Assembly: GCF_018420025.1 (NCBI RefSeq)
Contig: NZ_JAEDAM010000069.1
Location: 1 to 6,866 of the forward strand
Direction: 5' to 3'
DNA length: 6,866 nucleotides
DNA from: Candidatus Vampirococcus lugosii
GTDB taxonomy: Bacteria > Patescibacteriota > Gracilibacteria > Absconditabacterales > Absconditicoccaceae
The translations under genes were made by a program, and so were the position numbers. The stretch's first letter is position 1. Each line of letters begins with the position of its first letter. The notes beneath the pieces were generated by a model. That model saw nothing but the letters and a program-made list of their open reading frames with translations. It was not told the origin of the DNA and ran no database searches. Shown here piece after piece: positions 1-6,866 of the stretch.

Positions 1-132
1 CATTTTTGAGAAGAAGAATACAAAGAACTTGCAAAATATAGTGAAGAAATAGGTATAGATTTTCTTTCTACTCCTTTTGATTTAGATGCAGTTGATTTTT
101 TAGATCCTTTGATGAAATATTTTCTTTTTTAG
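1..132 (+). pseudogene. NeuB/PseI-family nonulosonic-acid (sialic/pseudaminic acid) synthase, internal fragment entering from the left edge
   Basis: Frame 1 with TGA=Gly reads HFGEEEYKELAKYSEEIGIDFLSTPFDLDAVDFLDPLM. This is the conserved GI-x-F-x-STPFD...VDFL block from the middle of NeuB-family synthases. Similarity stops near 114, followed by KYFLF and TAG at 130-132. Confidence 0.6.
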
Positions 133-187
133 CTATATCATAGTAGTTTACTCCTATTTCAGCTATTATATAAGGTGTTTTTATCAT
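68..187 (-). pseudogene. NeuB/PseI-family synthase, 5' fragment (only the first ~25 codons are homologous)
   Basis: ATG at 187..185, 8 nt after the TAA of the upstream pseF/pseG-like gene, which is an operon-like arrangement. MIKTPYIIAEIGVNYYDIAKKENIS matches the N-terminal IIAEIGxN motif of the family. Beyond ~113 the frame reads unrelated SKDLKNQLHLNQKE and stops at TAG 70..68, because it is now antisense to the + strand fragment. Confidence 0.6.
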
Positions 188-195
188 AATAATAT

Positions 196-1818
196 TTATA
201 ATTTATTTAAAATATCTAAGAATTTATTTATTCAATTTTCAAGATTATAAGAAAGCATTTTTTTATTTATTACTTTTCTTTCATCATAATTAAATATAAG
301 ATTTTTTATCTCTTCTTCAAGTTTAGTTTTATCTATAAAATTCACAAGTCAAAGATTTTTGATACATCAAGAAAAATTTGAAAAAGTATGATGCATTTCT
401 TGTTCATTTTGAGATATAGAGATTGTAGGAACTCATATACAAGTTATCTCATAAATTGTTCTTCCATTACTTGTAAGCATAATATCTGCATTTTGTATTA
501 CTTCTCACATATTCGATATATTTTCAAGTATTTTTATATTTTGTTTTCATTTTGTTATATTTTCTAGTTTTTTTTTATGAGAATATCAAGGTCATAGAAT
601 TATATTTATATTTCAATTATAATTTATATTTTCAAGTGATTGTAAATATATACAAGTAAGATTATTTGGATCTGTTCAACCACAACTTATAGTTATATTT
701 TTTACATCTTTTGTTATTTTTTTCTTTTCTTGATTTATAATATCATCTCTAAGTATTATATATTTATGTCCATTTAGTATATTTTCTTTATCATCAGTAA
801 ATTCATAAAGTTCATTTATAGTAAAATCTGCATAATTTTTTCATTCTCATAAATCTTCAAAATTTATAACTTTTAGTTCATTTTCTTTCAAACTATCAAT
901 ATATTTTTTTGAAGTATCAAGTATATCATTTATTATTATTTTTATATTTTTTTCTTTTAAAAATTTTATTAAATATTCTTCATTGTCATATTCTATAATT
1001 TCATAAAAATTTTCATTTATTATTTTTTTTGCAAGGTTATTTCATTTTTTTGTAAAAAATGTTGGCTTTGTATTTAGGTTTAATGCTATATGTAATTGTC
1101 TATATATATGTCATAATCAAGTTTTATTATTTCAAATTACATTTATAGCAATATTTTTTTGGTTTAATAAACTTTCAACATTCACCCAGTCTGCATAAGT
1201 ATCTATATCAGTAGATTCTTGCTCTCATGTTATCACAAAATCACAAGAGTTTATATTTATTCTTGTGTTGTTTGTTAGAAAATAATCTTTTTTAACTCAT
1301 ATGATTGCTCAAGTTTCTACATATTTTTTTGGTAAAAATTGCCTATTAACTCTTTTTTCAAAATCTGCAATTATCTTTCAATTTTCTTCTTTCCAGTAAA
1401 GATGAGTTTCTTCTCTTAGACTCATAAAAGAATCCTTTCAACTTTCTATAAAGTTTTTAATAGCTTTTTCTATAGTTTTTAACTTTATCAAAGGTGATGT
1501 TGGTTGAAAAGTTATTATATAATCATAATTATTATATTTTTCACATACATCAAATATTACGGGATCCAAAGGAGTTGCATCATCTGATAAACTTTCTGGT
1601 CTATTATGAATAATTATTTCTTTACTTTTACAATTATTTTTTATTTCTTCACTTTCAGTAGTTAAAACTATATCATCAATTATTTTTGATGATTTTAAAT
1701 TATCTATTGTATAGTGTATAAGAGGTTTTCAATTAAGAGGTTTTATATTCTTTTTTGGAATTCATTTACTACTTCATCTTGCCGGTATAATTGCAAGTAT
1801 TTTTTTGTTATTGTACAT
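196..1818 (-). CDS. Fusion protein of 540 aa: N-terminal CMP-nonulosonic acid synthetase (cytidylyltransferase, PseF/NeuA-like) plus C-terminal PseG-like UDP-sugar hydrolase (GT28-type domain)
   Basis: ATG 1818..1816, TAA 198..196, no TAA/TAG in between; about 24 in-frame TGA read as Gly. N-terminus: [38 protein letters not shown] ... ITFQPTSPL ... RVNRQFLPKKYVETGAI (cytidylyltransferase motifs). From about residue 230: VIGNNKTGLGHIYRQLHIAL ... ISCGGTDPNN ... NADIMLTSNGRTIYEITCIGVPTISI (PseG/SpsG-like motifs). An upstream in-frame stop at 1833..1831 fixes the start. Confidence 0.85.
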
Positions 1819-1854
1819 TATATATAATATTTAGTAGAGTCAAAACATAACACT

Positions 1855-1882
1855 ATTATAACATTTTATTTGTAAAAATCAA
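1855..1882 (-). promoter_or_regulatory. Sigma70-like promoter candidate for the pseF/pseG-like operon
   Basis: On the minus strand, TTGATT (1882..1877), a 16-nt spacer, then TATAAT (1860..1855), ending 36 nt upstream of the ATG at 1818. The hexamers and spacing are the same as the candidate at 3227-3254. AT-rich background makes chance matches common. Confidence 0.35.
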
Positions 1883-2062
1883 ACTTAATTATTATTTAAT
1901 TTGAAATATTTTTAAAATTAATTATAAGAAAGTAGATTGTTTTTTTACTAAAACGACATTATATATACAAAAATATACCTAATATGATAAGATTTAGTTT
2001 TTAATAGTGATAATATTAATAAATTAATTAGACAAATTGCTTATAGAACAAATGCATATAAG

Positions 2063-2281
2063 ATGTGGACATATTTTATTGAAAAAAATCATATTGTTTT
2101 ATTGAAAAATAAAAAATCTATATGTTTCTTAGTACCTAAAGTTGCAAATACTTCAATAAGTTTTGCATTAGCTGATATCTTAGATATTGATACTGAAGGT
2201 AAAAGTATAAGAAAAATATTACCTCGCATACAAAAGCAAGAAGTTACAAAAAATTACAATAACTATAATAAATTTTTATAA
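2063..2281 (+). pseudogene. Sulfotransferase-like N-terminal stub (72-codon ORF; only about the first 45 codons look family-like)
   Basis: MWTYFIEKNHIVLLKNKKSICFLVPKVANTSISFALADIL carries the N-terminal PKxxxTS (PAPS 5'-phosphate-binding loop) pattern of bacterial sulfotransferase-family proteins, which are normally over 200 aa. The ORF ends at TAA 2279-2281 and overlaps, in another frame, the start of glycosyltransferase homology. Confidence 0.35.
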
Positions 2282-2351
2282 ACTTTTCCAAAGAACTTGA
2301 CAGATAAAAAAATATTGTAGAAAAAATAATATAGACAAATCTCTTTCTTTT

Positions 2352-3215
2352 ATGGAGGAAGCAAATTTTCCAAATATTTTAAGTAAATATTTTTGAAGCA
2401 AATCAAAAATTGTTATAAGTATTAGAACAAATATTAATAAAAAGTCTTGATTATATAAAAAATTAATCAAATTTTTATACCCAAAAGCAGATTTTATAAC
2501 ACCAATAGTTAAGGAATGATCTCAAAATCTTATACAAAACTATTGAATTAATCCTAAAAGAATTCAAAATATATATAATATGTTTGATATAAAAGTAATA
2601 CAAGAAAAATCAAAAGAAGATTTATGAGACTATCAAGAATTGTTTAATAACTGAAAATATACATTTATAAATATATGAAAATTTATCAATGCTAAAAATC
2701 AAAAACTTTTACTTAATGCTTTTGATAAATTTCATCAGAAAAATCCAAATACTCAACTTATAATACTATGAGATGGGGAATTAAAAGAAGAATTGAAAAA
2801 TCAAAGAAAATCTTTATCTTCAAAAGAAGACATTTACTTTTTATGAGTTCATGAAAACCCTTATAAATTTTTGGCAAATTCTGATGCTTATATAAGTAGT
2901 AGTAGTTGGGAATGAATGGGTAGAGTTTTGGTAGAAGCTATGGCTTGTTGACTATCTATTATTTCTACTGATCATCCTACATGAGCAAAAGAAATTATGA
3001 AAAAAGATATTCAAAGTTTTGAAATGGTAGATTGAGTAAGTAAAGATAAATATTGAATATTAGTTCCAGTAGATGATGAAAAATCTTTAACTCAAGCAAT
3101 GCAAGATTTGTATGATGATAAAGATTTACAAGGACATTATAGTAAACAGTCAAAATTGAGAGCAAAAGATTTTGATGTTGAAAATATTATAAATGAATGG
3201 GAAAATGTTTTATAA
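2352..3215 (+). CDS. GT-B fold glycosyltransferase (family 1/4), 5'-truncated; frame open from 2211, first ATG at 2352
   Basis: Table 25 translation: MEEANFPNILSKYFGSKSKIVISIRTN...LYPKADFITPIVKEGSQNLIQNYGINPKRIQNIYN...YTFINIGKFINAKNQKLLLNAF...QLIILGDGEL...SSSSWEGMGRVLVEAMACGLSIISTD...GILVPVDDEKSL, ending TAA 3213-3215. The EGxG...EAMAxG motif has TGA at the Gly positions. Homology continues upstream of the ATG to about 2270 (FYKLFQRTGQIKKYCRKNNIDKSLSF) without a start codon. The glycine-rich first beta-alpha-beta unit of the N-domain is absent. Confidence 0.75.
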
Positions 3216-3226
3216 ATAAATTATAC

Positions 3227-3254
3227 TTGATTTATAATATTTTTTTTATATAAT
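3227..3254 (+). promoter_or_regulatory. Sigma70-like promoter candidate for the ATPase gene
   Basis: TTGATT (3227-3232), a 16-nt spacer, then TATAAT (3249-3254), ending 33 nt upstream of the ATG at 3288. Confidence 0.35.
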
Positions 3255-3287
3255 TCAGTTATACTTTATTAATATAACAAAATAATT

Positions 3288-4532
3288 ATGACAGATAAAT
3301 TAAAAGAATATATACAAAAAGTTATTATAAGACAAAAATATTTAAAAGATTTAGAAAATTTTTGTTTTGCTCCATTTATAAAAATTATTGTATGAGCAAG
3401 AAGAGTTTGAAAAAGTTTTTATCTTTTTTCTATTATAAAAAAATTATTAGAATTAAATAAATTAAAAGAAAATCAAATTTTTTATATAAACAAAGAATGG
3501 CTTGAATATGATGATATTCAAGATTATAAAGATTTAAATAATTATTTTTTGAAATGGAAAAAAGAAAATAAAGTATGAAATAATTTTTTCTTGTGAATTG
3601 ATGAAGTGCAAGAAATAAAAGATTGGCAAAAATTTATACTTTCTATTTGGAGTAGTTATCCACAAAGTATTATTTTTATTACTTGATCAAATTCAAAATT
3701 ATTATCAAAAGATATATGAACAAATTTAAGATGAAGATATATTTCCAAAAAAATTTTTCCTCTTTCTTTAAATGAATTTAGTTTATTTTCAAATAAAAAT
3801 ATAGATAACGAATTATTATTTGAATATATAAATTATTGATGATTACCTGCAATTAATTTTATTGATGATTTAAATATAAAATTAGAATATTTAAAATGAG
3901 TTTATAATACTATTTTTGTAAAAGATTTACTTGAATATGAAAATATAAGAAATACTAATTTACTCAAAAATATACATAAATTTTTATTTAAAGAATTTTG
4001 AAATTTGATTAATTCTAAAAATATTTCAAATTTTTTAAAAAAAGAAAATATAAAAACATCAATTGAAACTATATTAAATTATATGGAATTTAGTTTTAAT
4101 TCTTTTCTTTTTGATGAAGTTAGTAGATATGATATTAGATGAAAAAAACTTTTTGAAATAACAAAAAAAATATATTCTTTTGATCTTGGAATAAGAAATA
4201 GTATTGTATGAATAAATTTACAAAATGATATTTGATGAATTTATGAAAATTTAGTTTATAATCATTTTATTTCAAATTGATTTAATGTATTTGTATGAAT
4301 ACTGTGAGAAAAAGAAATTGATTTTATAGCTGAAAAATCTTGAAAAAAAATATATATTCAAGTAGCTTATTTATTATCTGATGAAAAAGTTATTGATAGA
4401 GAATTTTGAAATCTTATGAAAATCAAAGATTGATGGGAAAAAATAGTTATTTCAAGTGATAATTTATTTGTAAATAATTATGAATGAATAAAACATTATA
4501 ATATTTTGGATTGGTTGCAAAATATGGAATAA
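3288..4532 (+). CDS. AAA+ superfamily ATPase of the COG1373 type (AAA_14 N-domain plus DUF4143-like C-domain), 414 aa, intact
   Basis: ATG 3288, TAA 4530-4532, length divisible by 3, about 22 in-frame TGA. Walker A IVGARRVGKSF has both Gly encoded by TGA (3393-3395, 3408-3410). Walker B is FFLGIDEVQEIKDW. Further family motifs: ITGSNSKLLSKDIGTNLRGRY, YINYGGLPAI, IYSFDLGIRNSI, GGIYENLVYNHF, EIDFIAEKSGKKIYIQV. Confidence 0.9.
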
Positions 4533-4709
4533 TTTGATTTATTTTTTGAAATATATATATTAGTTGTAAGTTTTTAAACAGTTAAGTTTTATACAATGAA
4601 ATTTTATTCAAAACTATTTAATTGTTTAGAAATATATATATAAATAATTTAATCTTGTATAAAATAAAAAAAAATATATATATAATATTTTATAAAATAA
4701 TTTTTAATA

Positions 4710-5105
4710 ATGAAAAATAATTTAATATATATTCACAATATAAAAGTTTATAAATATAATAAAACTTATTATACAAATAGAGCTTGGATATTTAATGAGT
4801 TTTCTAAAAATTATAATATAAAACTATATTGTAAAACTCAACTTGAAGCTATGAGTGTTTGAGTCGTTCCAATATGTGCTGATGAAGGTTGAACTTATAG
4901 AACAATAGATAATTATTATAATGGATCGTTATTCAAAAAACTTGATTAGAAAGCTTTGGCAAAAAATATTGATATGCTGTATGATAAACCTGAATTGTAT
5001 GAGGATTTGAAACAAAATGCACTTAAATATATACAAGAGTTATCTTTGGAAAAACAAGTAAAGAAAATGAGTAAAACTATAAATAATTTTTATAATTTAA
5101 AATAA
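4710..5105 (+). pseudogene. Glycosyltransferase family 1 remnant: N-terminal ~43 codons joined directly to the C-terminal ~85 codons, with an in-frame TAG
   Basis: MKNNLIYIHNIKVYKYNKTYYTNRAWIFNEFSKNYNIKLYCKTQ is followed immediately by LEAMSVGVVPICADEGGTYRTIDNYYNGSLFKKLD (the EAMAxGxPV...G motif, normally ~250 residues further in). Then TAG at 4947-4949, then in the same frame KALAKNIDMLYDKPELYEDLKQNALKYIQELSLEKQVKKMSKTINNFYNLK and TAA at 5103-5105. Confidence 0.6.
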
Positions 5106-5281
5106 GAAAAATGAATATAATTAAAAAAATCTTTTCAAGATTATATATAGCTTATGAAACAATTTAAATCAGAAATAGAGAAAATAAATGATTTACTTCA
5201 TAAACATAGTCTTATAGATCCAGAGATTGATTTAGTAAAATATTGGTGATATGATAAAATTTAGTATTAAATTATTCTCTA

Positions 5282-5322
5282 ATCTTAACAACTTCTTTTT
5301 TAAGTTTTAGTAAACTTTTATA
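5282..5322. repeat. 41-bp perfect direct repeat, copy 1
   Basis: ATCTTAACAACTTCTTTTTTAAGTTTTAGTAAACTTTTATA is identical to 6296-6336. The left boundary is sharp, with unrelated flanks. The right flank shows only weak AT-rich resemblance. Confidence 0.95.
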
Positions 5323-5518
5323 GTTAATTTTCTATCAACACTTTTATTAAAAATACTTGATTTTTTATCAATCCTATGGAAGTAAAGTATAGAAACAAAA
5401 AAGATGTTTATCTCATACCAGCTTGCTTGGTAAGTTTTATAAACCTTTAATTTTTTCTTGATTTTAAATATATAATCATTATATTTCTTTTAGTTGTATT
5501 TTTTAACCACTTATAGAA

Positions 5519-6134
5519 ATGAAATATATAAATATTCAAAAAAACTAAAAGAATTAAAGATTTTTTCAACTCAAGATTTAAAATTACTTGATGATAATTA
5601 TGATAAGTCAAAAATTTTTAAGTGGAAAAAAGCTTGATATATAAAATAAATTATAAGATGATATTATATATTATCTGATATTCATATAAATGAAAGTTTG
5701 CTTTATTTTGCATCAAATAAGATCTATCAACCAAGTTATATATCTTTGGAAAGTGCTTTTTCATACTATGGGATTATTCCTGAACAAGTATTTACTATAA
5801 ATTGAGTAAGCACAAAAAAGACAAATTATTTTAAAACAGATTTTTGAGTATTTAATTATAAAAAAATAAATCCAAAACTATTTTTCTGATATAATATAAT
5901 TTCTTTAAAAGAAAATAAAGTTCTTATTGCAAGTTTAGAAAAGGCTATATTAGATTACTTTTATTTGTATGATAATATAAAAAGCACTGTAGATTTTGAA
6001 TATTTAAGATGGAACAAAGACATACTAAAAAAAAATTAGATATTGATAAATTAAAAAAATATTGAAGTTTAATTAAAATAAAAATTATAAACAAAAGAAT
6101 AGATTTACTTCTTAAATATATAAATAAAAGATAA
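5519..6134 (+). pseudogene. abiEi: AbiEi-family antitoxin (type IV TA / abortive infection AbiE), disrupted by two homopolymer frameshifts and one nonsense codon
   Basis: Reading across three frames:
- MKYINIQK from ATG 5519.
- After a frameshift in the A7 run at 5538-5544: KLKELKIFSTQDLKLLDDNYDKSKIFKWKKAGYIK, TAA at 5647-5649, then IIRGYYILSDIHINESLLYFASNKIYQPSYISLESAFSYYGIIPEQVFTINGVSTKKTNYFKTDFGVFNYKKINPKLFFGYN...IASLEKAILDYFYLY...LRWNKDILKK.
- After a frameshift in the A9 run at 6027-6035: LDIDKLKKYGSLIKIKIINKRIDLLLKYINKR, TAA at 6132-6134.
The PSYISLESA-x-SYYG-x-IPE block is the family hallmark as I remember it. Confidence 0.75.
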
Positions 6135-6135
6135 T

Positions 6136-6279
6136 GAAAACTTAAAAGAAAAATTAAATGAATTTACAAAAAATCAAAACCTTGAAAAAATAGCTCAAGA
6201 TGTAAAGCCTTTTTTAATAAATCAAGATGAGATATATAGAGTTATCAATTTTCAAGATTTTATTGATAGTTTAAAATAA
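6136..6279 (+). pseudogene. AbiEii/AbiGii-family nucleotidyltransferase toxin, 3'-terminal remnant (~47 codons)
   Basis: An ATG at 6134-6136 overlaps the antitoxin stop (TAATG), the typical coupled start, but reads only MKT-stop. In the next frame, ENLKEKLNEFTKNQNLEKIAQDVKPFLINQDEIYRVINFQDFIDSLK (TAA 6277-6279) resembles the extreme C-terminus of AbiEii toxins (D-V-x-P-F-l motif). The roughly 200-plus residue nucleotidyltransferase core is missing. Confidence 0.5.
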
Positions 6280-6295
6280 CCACTACCCTTTTTTT

Positions 6296-6336
6296 ATCTT
6301 AACAACTTCTTTTTTAAGTTTTAGTAAACTTTTATA
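6296..6336. repeat. 41-bp perfect direct repeat, copy 2
   Basis: Identical to 5282-5322. It lies 16 bp downstream of the flippase stop codon (6354..6352). Confidence 0.95.
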
Positions 6337-6351
6337 ATTTATAATCAAAAA

Positions 6352-6866
6352 TTATAATCAAAATATAGCAAAAGCTATCATCAAGTAAAATAAATTTTCA
6401 TATCCTGCACTATCTGTATATTCAAAAAAGTTTCATTTCAAAACATATAGTATAGTTCATATACAAACAAAATATAATAAATTTCAAAATATAAATCATC
6501 TATAAAGTTTTATAGGGTTTTTCTTATATATGTAGATAAATGAAAATAAAAAGATTATAAAACAAGCTATGATACTTGATATAACTGCTCCATATACTCA
6601 TATAAAAAGTATCAAAGCTCCATTTATGAGAATATTTACAAGTACAACAAAAGCTATTATCTTTACTCTATTTTTAGGTTTTCCATAAGCATTTATCACT
6701 ACAAAATTTAACTGAAATAAGACTTTTAGAACCAAAAATAAAGCTATTATCACTTGCAAGAAATATAGTGTCTTGATAATCTTGAAATATAATTCATTCT
6801 TTTTTAAGAACTGTTTCAAAGCTAATATATGAATTTTTTTTAAGTTTTGTTGAAAGTTCAAGTTTG
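6352..6866 (-). CDS. Polysaccharide/O-unit flippase of the Wzx/MOP superfamily, C-terminal part (5' end lies beyond the right edge)
   Basis: With TGA=Gly the minus frame is open from the window edge to TAA 6354..6352: ...NFVVINAYGKPKNRVKIIAFVVLVNILINGALILFIGVYGAVISSIIACFIIFLFSFIYIYKKNPIKLYRGFIFGNLLYFVCIGTILYVLKGNFFEYTDSAGYENLFYLMIAFAIFGL. It has successive hydrophobic helices and a G-x-x-GA-x-I-S motif typical of flippase C-terminal halves. The 87-aa track ORF is an internal piece of this gene. Confidence 0.55.

Follow-up and report, generated by a model that had tools for sequence, protein, structure and literature searches.

The DNA analysed here is a stretch of 6,866 nucleotides from Candidatus Vampirococcus lugosii (hereafter the window), and our subject is the reading of the codon TGA in its genes, which a first-pass annotation of the window had proposed to be decoded as glycine. 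The window has a G+C content of about 20% and is a complete contig of the published assembly of this predatory bacterium, which belongs to the candidate phyla radiation (CPR) and is grouped with the Absconditabacteria/SR1 (PMC8080830). Five translations made under table 25, i.e. those of the open reading frames (ORFs) A, B and C, of the 79-amino-acid ORF D and of the partial ORF F, are identical to V. lugosii proteins deposited at NCBI (accessions are given with the features), and the window therefore represents a whole contig of that assembly. Three of these genes are intact and form the basis of the analysis:

196..1818, minus strand: ORF A, fused PseF/NeuA-like cytidylyltransferase and PseG-like UDP-sugar hydrolase (MBS8122302.1)
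2352..3215, plus strand: ORF B, PglJ-like glycosyltransferase of family 4 (GT4) (MBS8122304.1)
3288..4532, plus strand: ORF C, AAA_14/DUF4143 ATPase (MBS8122305.1; P0001)

Reading frames with TGA as stop or as sense codon

Under the standard code the window contains exactly three ORFs reaching the cut-off of 60 amino acids (72, 64 and 87 amino acids), in agreement with the first-pass annotation, which had counted only three short ones; the longest stop-free frame has 96 codons, and none of the window (0%) is covered by frames of 100 codons or more. With TGA read as a sense codon this coverage rises to 70%, and non-overlapping stop-free frames of 544, 419, 334, 170 and 129 codons appear, the three longest of which hold the intact genes:

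196..1830, minus strand: stop-free frame with TGA as sense, 544 codons, 540 from the first ATG, ending at TAA (ORF A)
3273..4532, plus strand: stop-free frame with TGA as sense, 419 codons, 414 from the first ATG, ending at TAA (ORF C)
2211..3215, plus strand: stop-free frame with TGA as sense, 334 codons, 287 from the first ATG, ending at TAA (ORF B)

The frames of 540, 414 and 287 codons, described earlier as interrupted by TGA only and ending at TAA, are thus reproduced when counted from the first ATG, and all individual TGA codons (3393, 3408, 1776, 1764, 678, 2769 and 2913) and TGG codons (3498, 3555, 3624 and 2907) that had been located by position are correctly placed. The same coverage measure applied to three related CPR loci gives 4-14% under the standard code versus 78-92% with TGA as sense. 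The effect is specific for TGA, as reading TAG as sense gains no frames and reading TAA as sense results in 38 overlapping frames representing AT-rich noise. In 300 dinucleotide-preserving shuffles of the window the longest frame free of TAA and TAG had a mean length of 97 codons (standard deviation 17) and a maximum of 175 codons. Frame 1 of ORFs A, B and C contains no TAA or TAG and accommodates 24, 14 and 22 in-frame TGA codons, respectively; each of the other frames contains 5-53 TAA/TAG codons.

These data bear directly on the possibility that TGA is a genuine stop codon and the window non-coding or thoroughly pseudogenised, a reading which could draw on the lack of any standard-code frame above 96 codons and on the fact that some parts of the window are truly decayed. 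We consider it to be vanishingly improbable, as TAA and TAG are excluded from one frame of each of the three long ORFs and abundant in the other two, as the frames opened by TGA as sense are far beyond the shuffle maximum, and as the proteins agree in length with their homologs from end to end (414 amino acids for ORF C compared to 399-416 in homologs, 540 compared to 540-560 for ORF A). Moreover, the TGA codons fall on catalytic and Walker-A glycines, and their pattern is kept, with codon changes of a conservative kind, in orthologs sharing 81-86% nucleotide identity.

The description of the window as gene-dense under table 25 holds for three intact genes plus a partial one, but the intact genes account for only about 62% of its length. 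The remainder consists of gene fragments or pseudogenes, and between 4.55 and 6.35 kb even table 25 leaves decayed fragments whose frames are disrupted by TAA/TAG stops and one frameshift.

The amino acid encoded by TGA

In order to avoid circularity, TGA was masked as X in all queries. The Pfam families were still recovered for ORFs A, B and C, for the segment 4710..5105 and for the first 132 bases of the window. The families named by the first-pass annotation were matched in this way for CTP_transf_3, PseG-like proteins, Glycos_transf_1, AAA_14/DUF4143 and NeuB, and AbiEi was reached only via PADLOC and NCBIfam. ORF A (540 codons, 24 TGA, three GGN, stop TAA) matches Pfam CTP_transf_3 (2.4e-24) and Glyco_tran_28_C as well as the NCBIfam models PseG (2.9e-35) and PseF (1e-30), both under the equivalog cut-offs; a fused PseF-PseG architecture of 540-560 amino acids is common among its homologs, namely in archaea and spirochaetes. 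ORF B (287 codons, 14 TGA, three GGN, stop TAA) matches Pfam Glycos_transf_1 (5.2e-24) and NCBIfam PglJ (5.3e-59; profile positions 96-357 of 363), being about 95 residues short at the N-terminus, and a search of the window's remaining frames found no N-terminal GT4 domain for it. ORF C (414 codons, 22 TGA, one GGN, six TGG, stop TAA) matches Pfam AAA_14 (5.6e-23) and DUF4143 (2.1e-11) and, over its full length, the PADLOC defence candidate PDC-S01 (2.8e-123). The NCBI protein P0001, named 'ATP-binding protein' and the top hit of the search with masked ORF C, equals ORF C at every unmasked residue and has glycine at all 22 TGA positions; no sequence relative of ORF C was found among solved structures.

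For the column tests 119 and 120 homologs obtained with the masked queries were aligned, and rows resembling translations under table 4, i.e. with UGA as tryptophan, were removed. In ORF A glycine makes up at least 93% of the residues at 13 of the 24 TGA columns, eight of these being 100% glycine (115 sequences), and 12 of the 22 columns of ORF C are at least 90% glycine, so that jointly 25 of 46 TGA columns reach 90%. Codetta-style log-odds over these 46 columns of two families yield +109 bits for glycine, compared to -163 for serine, -164 for alanine and -202 for tryptophan. The reverse test leads to the same assignment: at 29 columns with at least 90% glycine in the homologs the window has TGA 24 times, GGN three times and another codon twice. 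In distant homologs glycine makes up 58% of residues in TGA columns versus 1.9% in other columns. Tabulating the homologous residue for each TGA column, a check suggested with the first-pass annotation, therefore favours glycine and not tryptophan.

Alignments to solved structures place glycine opposite the TGA codons of the PAR-G-SSK-G and N-G-A motifs of ORF A and of the ILGDG, FLG and ACG motifs of ORF B, the latter three being glycine in 4/4 solved-structure homologs. At the E-G-MG position of ORF B (2913), in contrast, one of the four structures has glycine and three have serine. The earlier statement that TGA sits on invariant glycines in every recognisable family consequently needs qualification: it stands for the motifs listed in its support, except for E-G-MG, and since variable columns hold about 45% of the TGA codons, which is to be expected of any glycine codon, it has to be restricted to those motifs.

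UGA is read as tryptophan (table 4) in Mycoplasmatales, Entomoplasmatales and several insect endosymbionts. There the same codon has been reassigned in AT-rich reduced genomes, resulting in identical-looking ORF maps, and for the window, too, table 4 yields the same long ORFs as table 25; furthermore, public protein sets give tryptophan at the TGA positions of many close relatives. The alignments separate the two codes, as TGA in the window aligns to glycine and never to tryptophan. In ORF A, tryptophan amounts to 0% at each of the 24 TGA columns (115 homologs), and of four columns with at least 50% tryptophan in the homologs the window has TGG at three and TGA at none, which bears out the earlier observation that tryptophan is still supplied by TGG. 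The amino acid composition of ORFs A-C points in the same direction: table 4 would raise tryptophan from 0.81%, encoded by TGG alone, to an implausible 5.64% and leave glycine at 0.56%, compared to 5.40% glycine if TGA is glycine. Together with the log-odds this leaves the reading as tryptophan extremely improbable and agrees with the argument made before against a Mycoplasma-type code.

The origin of the tryptophan residues in close relatives is explained by the nucleotide sequences of ORF C orthologs from two uncultured relatives, i.e. L121 (70-1314; locus G+C 0.225, 81% nucleotide identity) and L122 (10001-11245; G+C 0.205, 85.5% identity). TGA codons of ORF C pair with TGA 16 times in L121 and 22 times in L122 and with GGN five times, one GGA of the window stands opposite an ortholog TGA, and TGA is paired with TGG in neither ortholog; all six TGG codons of ORF C are kept as TGG (6/6) in both. 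The TGA codons underlying the tryptophans in these two relatives thus alternate with GGN, and the database proteins of the two orthologs, P0020 and P0011, carry tryptophan at every TGA, showing that they are table-4 translations; the tryptophans in TGA columns of close relatives are due to such translations. When a collection of 5.8 billion proteins is searched with ORF C, 52 of the 119 top hits are rich in tryptophan and poor in glycine, the signature of table 4, which was confirmed at the DNA level for two of the 52, one of them from an NCBI assembly.

The first-pass annotation's warning that annotation under table 11 or table 4 would be wrong is justified by these findings. Under table 11 the contig looks empty, and under table 4 every glycine encoded by TGA is turned into tryptophan, including Walker-A and catalytic glycines. 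In the two relatives compared at the DNA level, table-4 calls corrupt about 5% of the residues, and precisely the most conserved ones, which is a data-quality concern for profiles or structure predictions built on metagenomic CPR proteins. Public sets of metagenomic proteins thus contain mistranslated versions of many relatives of V. lugosii. For V. lugosii itself the public record is based on table 25, but the situation of its uncultured relatives is poorer.

Decoding machinery and relation to known genetic codes

We propose that UGA would be decoded in V. lugosii by a dedicated tRNA-Gly with the anticodon UCA and the glycine identity set G1:C72, C2:G71, G3:C70 and U73, and that release factor 2 (RF2) would have been lost, as suggested by the literature and by related genomes. 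This identity set is given in PMC8629427. We scanned species-representative genomes by pattern for class-I tRNAs combining the anticodon UCA with the glycine identity set, resulting in at least 120 matches. About two thirds of the matches listed are chance matches in high-GC coding DNA; among the matches listed ARAGORN finds a tRNA(UCA) in at least about 40 loci, all of them low-GC contigs, labelled as Gracilibacteria, Peribacteria, Patescibacteria, Altimarinus or unclassified bacterium. This tRNA is nearly invariant in sequence across these at least about 40 related genomes:

GCGGGGGTAACATAAAAGAGTGAGTGTACTAAGGCTTCAACCCTTGGGTGTGCGAGTTCAAACCTCGTCCCCCGCT

With 76 nt plus CCA and the identity elements for glycine it is a normal class-I tRNA; its presence in relatives supports the mechanism for the clade. 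Proteomic data on a BD1-5 relative provided 97 peptides specific for UGA as glycine, compared to three specific for tryptophan and none specific for a stop (PMC4032931).

The same tRNAs are relevant for the idea that TGA is read by selenocysteine insertion or low-level readthrough instead of being truly reassigned, as the default ARAGORN label for a tRNA whose anticodon is UCA is 'tRNA-SeC'. Their class-I structure with glycine identity elements differs from the long-arm tRNA-Sec, and with 60 TGA in the 1241 codons of ORFs A-C (4.8%) the codon is far too frequent for insertion depending on a selenocysteine insertion sequence (SECIS) element. TGA columns are glycine in homologs, and cysteine is among the residues with the worst log-odds. 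We therefore give this possibility practically no credence.

As a separate observation, ordinary-looking UCA tRNAs with glycine identity elements also occur outside the CPR, on an Anaerolineaceae contig of a metagenome-assembled genome (MAG) (L010, G+C 0.65, positions 16-90) and on a 5-kb contig of an Akkermansia MAG (L052, 4985-5055). Both contigs, at least two such cases among the matches listed, read normally in the standard code, and their tRNAs may be opal suppressors or phage-borne.

The genome of V. lugosii was described by Moreira et al. 2021. According to this work UGA encodes glycine in V. lugosii, genes were called by Prodigal under translation table 25, and the genome has 38 tRNA genes (PMC8080830); its supplementary text does not mention release factors, tRNA-Gly or sialic-acid genes. 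The assembly was obtained from single consortia amplified by multiple displacement amplification (MDA) and by multiple annealing and looping-based amplification cycles (MALBAC) (PMC8080830).

Several points limit the support for the reading of UGA as glycine. No tRNA was found in the window or within 35 kb around the orthologs of ORF C, and no Vampirococcus contig is among the matches listed in the tRNA(UCA) scan. The share of TGA codons lying in variable columns is uninformative rather than contradictory. As a further caveat, individual frameshifts and stops of the decayed region could be amplification or assembly errors, since the assembly derives from whole-genome-amplified material. Nothing within the window speaks against UGA being glycine, and all tests that the window allowed came out in favour of this reading, which is supported by the homolog columns, the ortholog codons, the composition and the published code. 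We regard it as practically certain that V. lugosii reads UGA as glycine according to table 25 and that UAA and UAG remain stop codons. This code has been published before and underlies the public annotation; no new biology arises from the finding.

UGA is said to have been assigned to glycine in Absconditabacteria/SR1 by Campbell et al. 2013 (reference 19 of PMC8080830), and Rinke et al. 2013 reportedly did so for Gracilibacteria/BD1-5. The closest match to the window is the code published for the Absconditabacteria/SR1 group including V. lugosii, with UGA as glycine, UAA and UAG as stops and UGG as tryptophan in a low-GC, reduced CPR genome (PMC8080830). Nothing differs in kind; TGA is, however, the dominant glycine codon of the window (90%) and not an additional one. 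The same reassignment is described for Gracilibacteria/BD1-5 by Hanke et al. 2014 (PMC4032931); for this group the proof is proteomic, and the same tRNA(UCA), nearly invariant, occurs in the related genomes. The attribution of the code to both Gracilibacteria and Absconditabacteria in the first-pass annotation accordingly matches PMC8080830 and PMC4032931. Gracilibacteria/BD1-5 are a sister lineage, in which, following PMC8629427, some members keep UGA as stop together with RF2. The window itself shows the hallmarks of table 25: its organism belongs to the Absconditabacteria/Gracilibacteria clade, as documented by the five exact V. lugosii proteins and PMC8080830, ORFs A, B and C are broken only by in-frame UGA and end at UAA, UGA falls on conserved glycine columns, and tryptophan is encoded by UGG and not by UGA. 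The corresponding hallmark of code 4, UGA on conserved tryptophan columns, is absent.

TGA accounts for 60 of the 67 glycine codons of ORFs A, B and C, the seven GGN codons being distributed as three, three and one; this preference is in line with strong AT pressure in a region whose G+C content is about 20%. CGN is likewise unused, with no such codon in the 1241 codons of ORFs A-C or in the two orthologous genes, and arginine in ORFs A-C is encoded by 24 AGA and one AGG only. As an observation, near-empty GGN and CGN boxes represent a state permitting further codon capture, for example of CGA/CGG for tryptophan. We consider it a tentative and rather doubtful possibility that, with UGA being the principal and not an additional glycine codon, GGN nearly abandoned and CGN unused, the true code lies beyond table 25; CGA/CGG could be captured for tryptophan, or GGN could be heading to extinction. 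If this were true, the public table-25 annotation would be slightly wrong.

The more specific proposal, table 25 with CGA and CGG as tryptophan, would make table 25 incomplete for V. lugosii and would extend rather than replace the reading of UGA as glycine; we judge it to be possible, and slightly less doubtful, though still unlikely. According to the Codetta paper (Shulgina & Eddy 2021; PMC8629427), CGA/CGG as tryptophan is predicted across the Absconditabacteria genomes analysed and linked to low GC. This extended code shares with the window the clade, the low GC and the nearly or fully extinct CGN codons, and the complete absence of CGN, with arginine restricted to AGA/AGG, is a precondition for codon capture. 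The three intact ORFs and two orthologous genes, however, offer no CGA or CGG codon by which the assignment might be judged, and Vampirococcus is not named in the available part of that account. Because the three intact ORFs have no CGN codon, the question is moot for this contig.

Gene fragments, repeats and the glycan locus

Beside the intact genes the window contains the following features, in part identified by PADLOC and NCBIfam:

1..132, plus strand: internal fragment of NeuB (N-acetylneuraminate/pseudaminate synthase family), running in from the contig end
4710..5105, plus strand: C-terminal third of a GT1 glycosyltransferase, fragment or pseudogene (its first 79 codons being ORF D), two TGA
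5275..5328, no strand assigned: left copy of a 54-nt direct repeat (repeat search, 91% identity, spacing 1014 nt)
5519..6039, plus strand: AbiEi antitoxin pseudogene (frame reading; PADLOC/NCBIfam after repair)
6124..6279, plus strand: AbiEii toxin remnant, last ~50 residues (PADLOC AbiEii 1.1e-07, 205-253 of 254)
6289..6342, no strand assigned: right copy of the direct repeat, just downstream of the ORF F stop
6352..6864, minus strand: ORF F, C-terminal 170 codons of a membrane protein, running off the contig end (MBS8122308.1)

The NeuB fragment has one in-frame TGA (7..9) and a premature TAA at 130..132 and matches Pfam NeuB (3.4e-08; 53-88 of 241) and NCBIfam NeuB_NnaB (74-108 of 329). In 4710..5105 an in-frame TAG (4947..4949) is spanned by the Pfam Glycos_transf_1 match (3e-09; 73-171 of 172), and the NCBI annotation is limited to the first 79 codons (MBS8122306.1, exact match); this TAG marks a gene fragment and not a recoding of TAG. 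To remain in frame the AbiEi antitoxin requires a further A within the A7 run (5538..5544), and its frame is interrupted by a TAA (5647..5649). After repair it contains five TGA, four of them in the frame 5650..6039, and matches PADLOC AbiEi (9e-54; 1-167 of 199) and NCBIfam TAA_AbiEi (3e-10). Between AbiEi and AbiEii six stops occur in the same frame (6040..6123). A recoding of TAA or TAG was considered for the stops in the fragments of 4710..6279 and rejected, as ORFs A, B, C and F end at TAA where homologs predict it; the frameshift and the large deletions in the fragments speak against it as well. The 54-nt repeats bracketing the AbiE remnant suggest an inserted cassette or a duplication.

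ORF F comprises six TGA, four GGN and a TAA stop and is named 'polysaccharide biosynthesis C-terminal domain-containing protein, partial' at NCBI. Pfam gave no match at E<=1 for ORF F, the AbiEi remnant or a 96-codon frame at 1991..2281, and NCBIfam no significant match for ORF F or this frame. The latter frame has no TGA and one GGN, includes an ATG-initiated ORF of 72 amino acids (2063..2281) and contains the motif 'FLVPKVANTSI'; it may be a gene or a remnant, and its interpretation as a sulfotransferase fragment found no support in Pfam or NCBIfam.

Under table 25 the contig contains part of a locus for nonulosonic-acid and glycan biosynthesis, represented by the NeuB fragment, the PseF-PseG fusion, the GT4 glycosyltransferase and the flippase-like C-terminus, along with the AAA_14/DUF4143 ATPase and the decayed remains of an AbiE toxin-antitoxin pair. 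With NeuB truncated and ORF B short at its N-terminus, the glycan locus looks eroded, or else the amplified assembly looks chimeric at these places. In the relative L122 (5964-15945) five or six AAA_14/DUF4143 paralogs lie interspersed among genes of polysaccharide biosynthesis.

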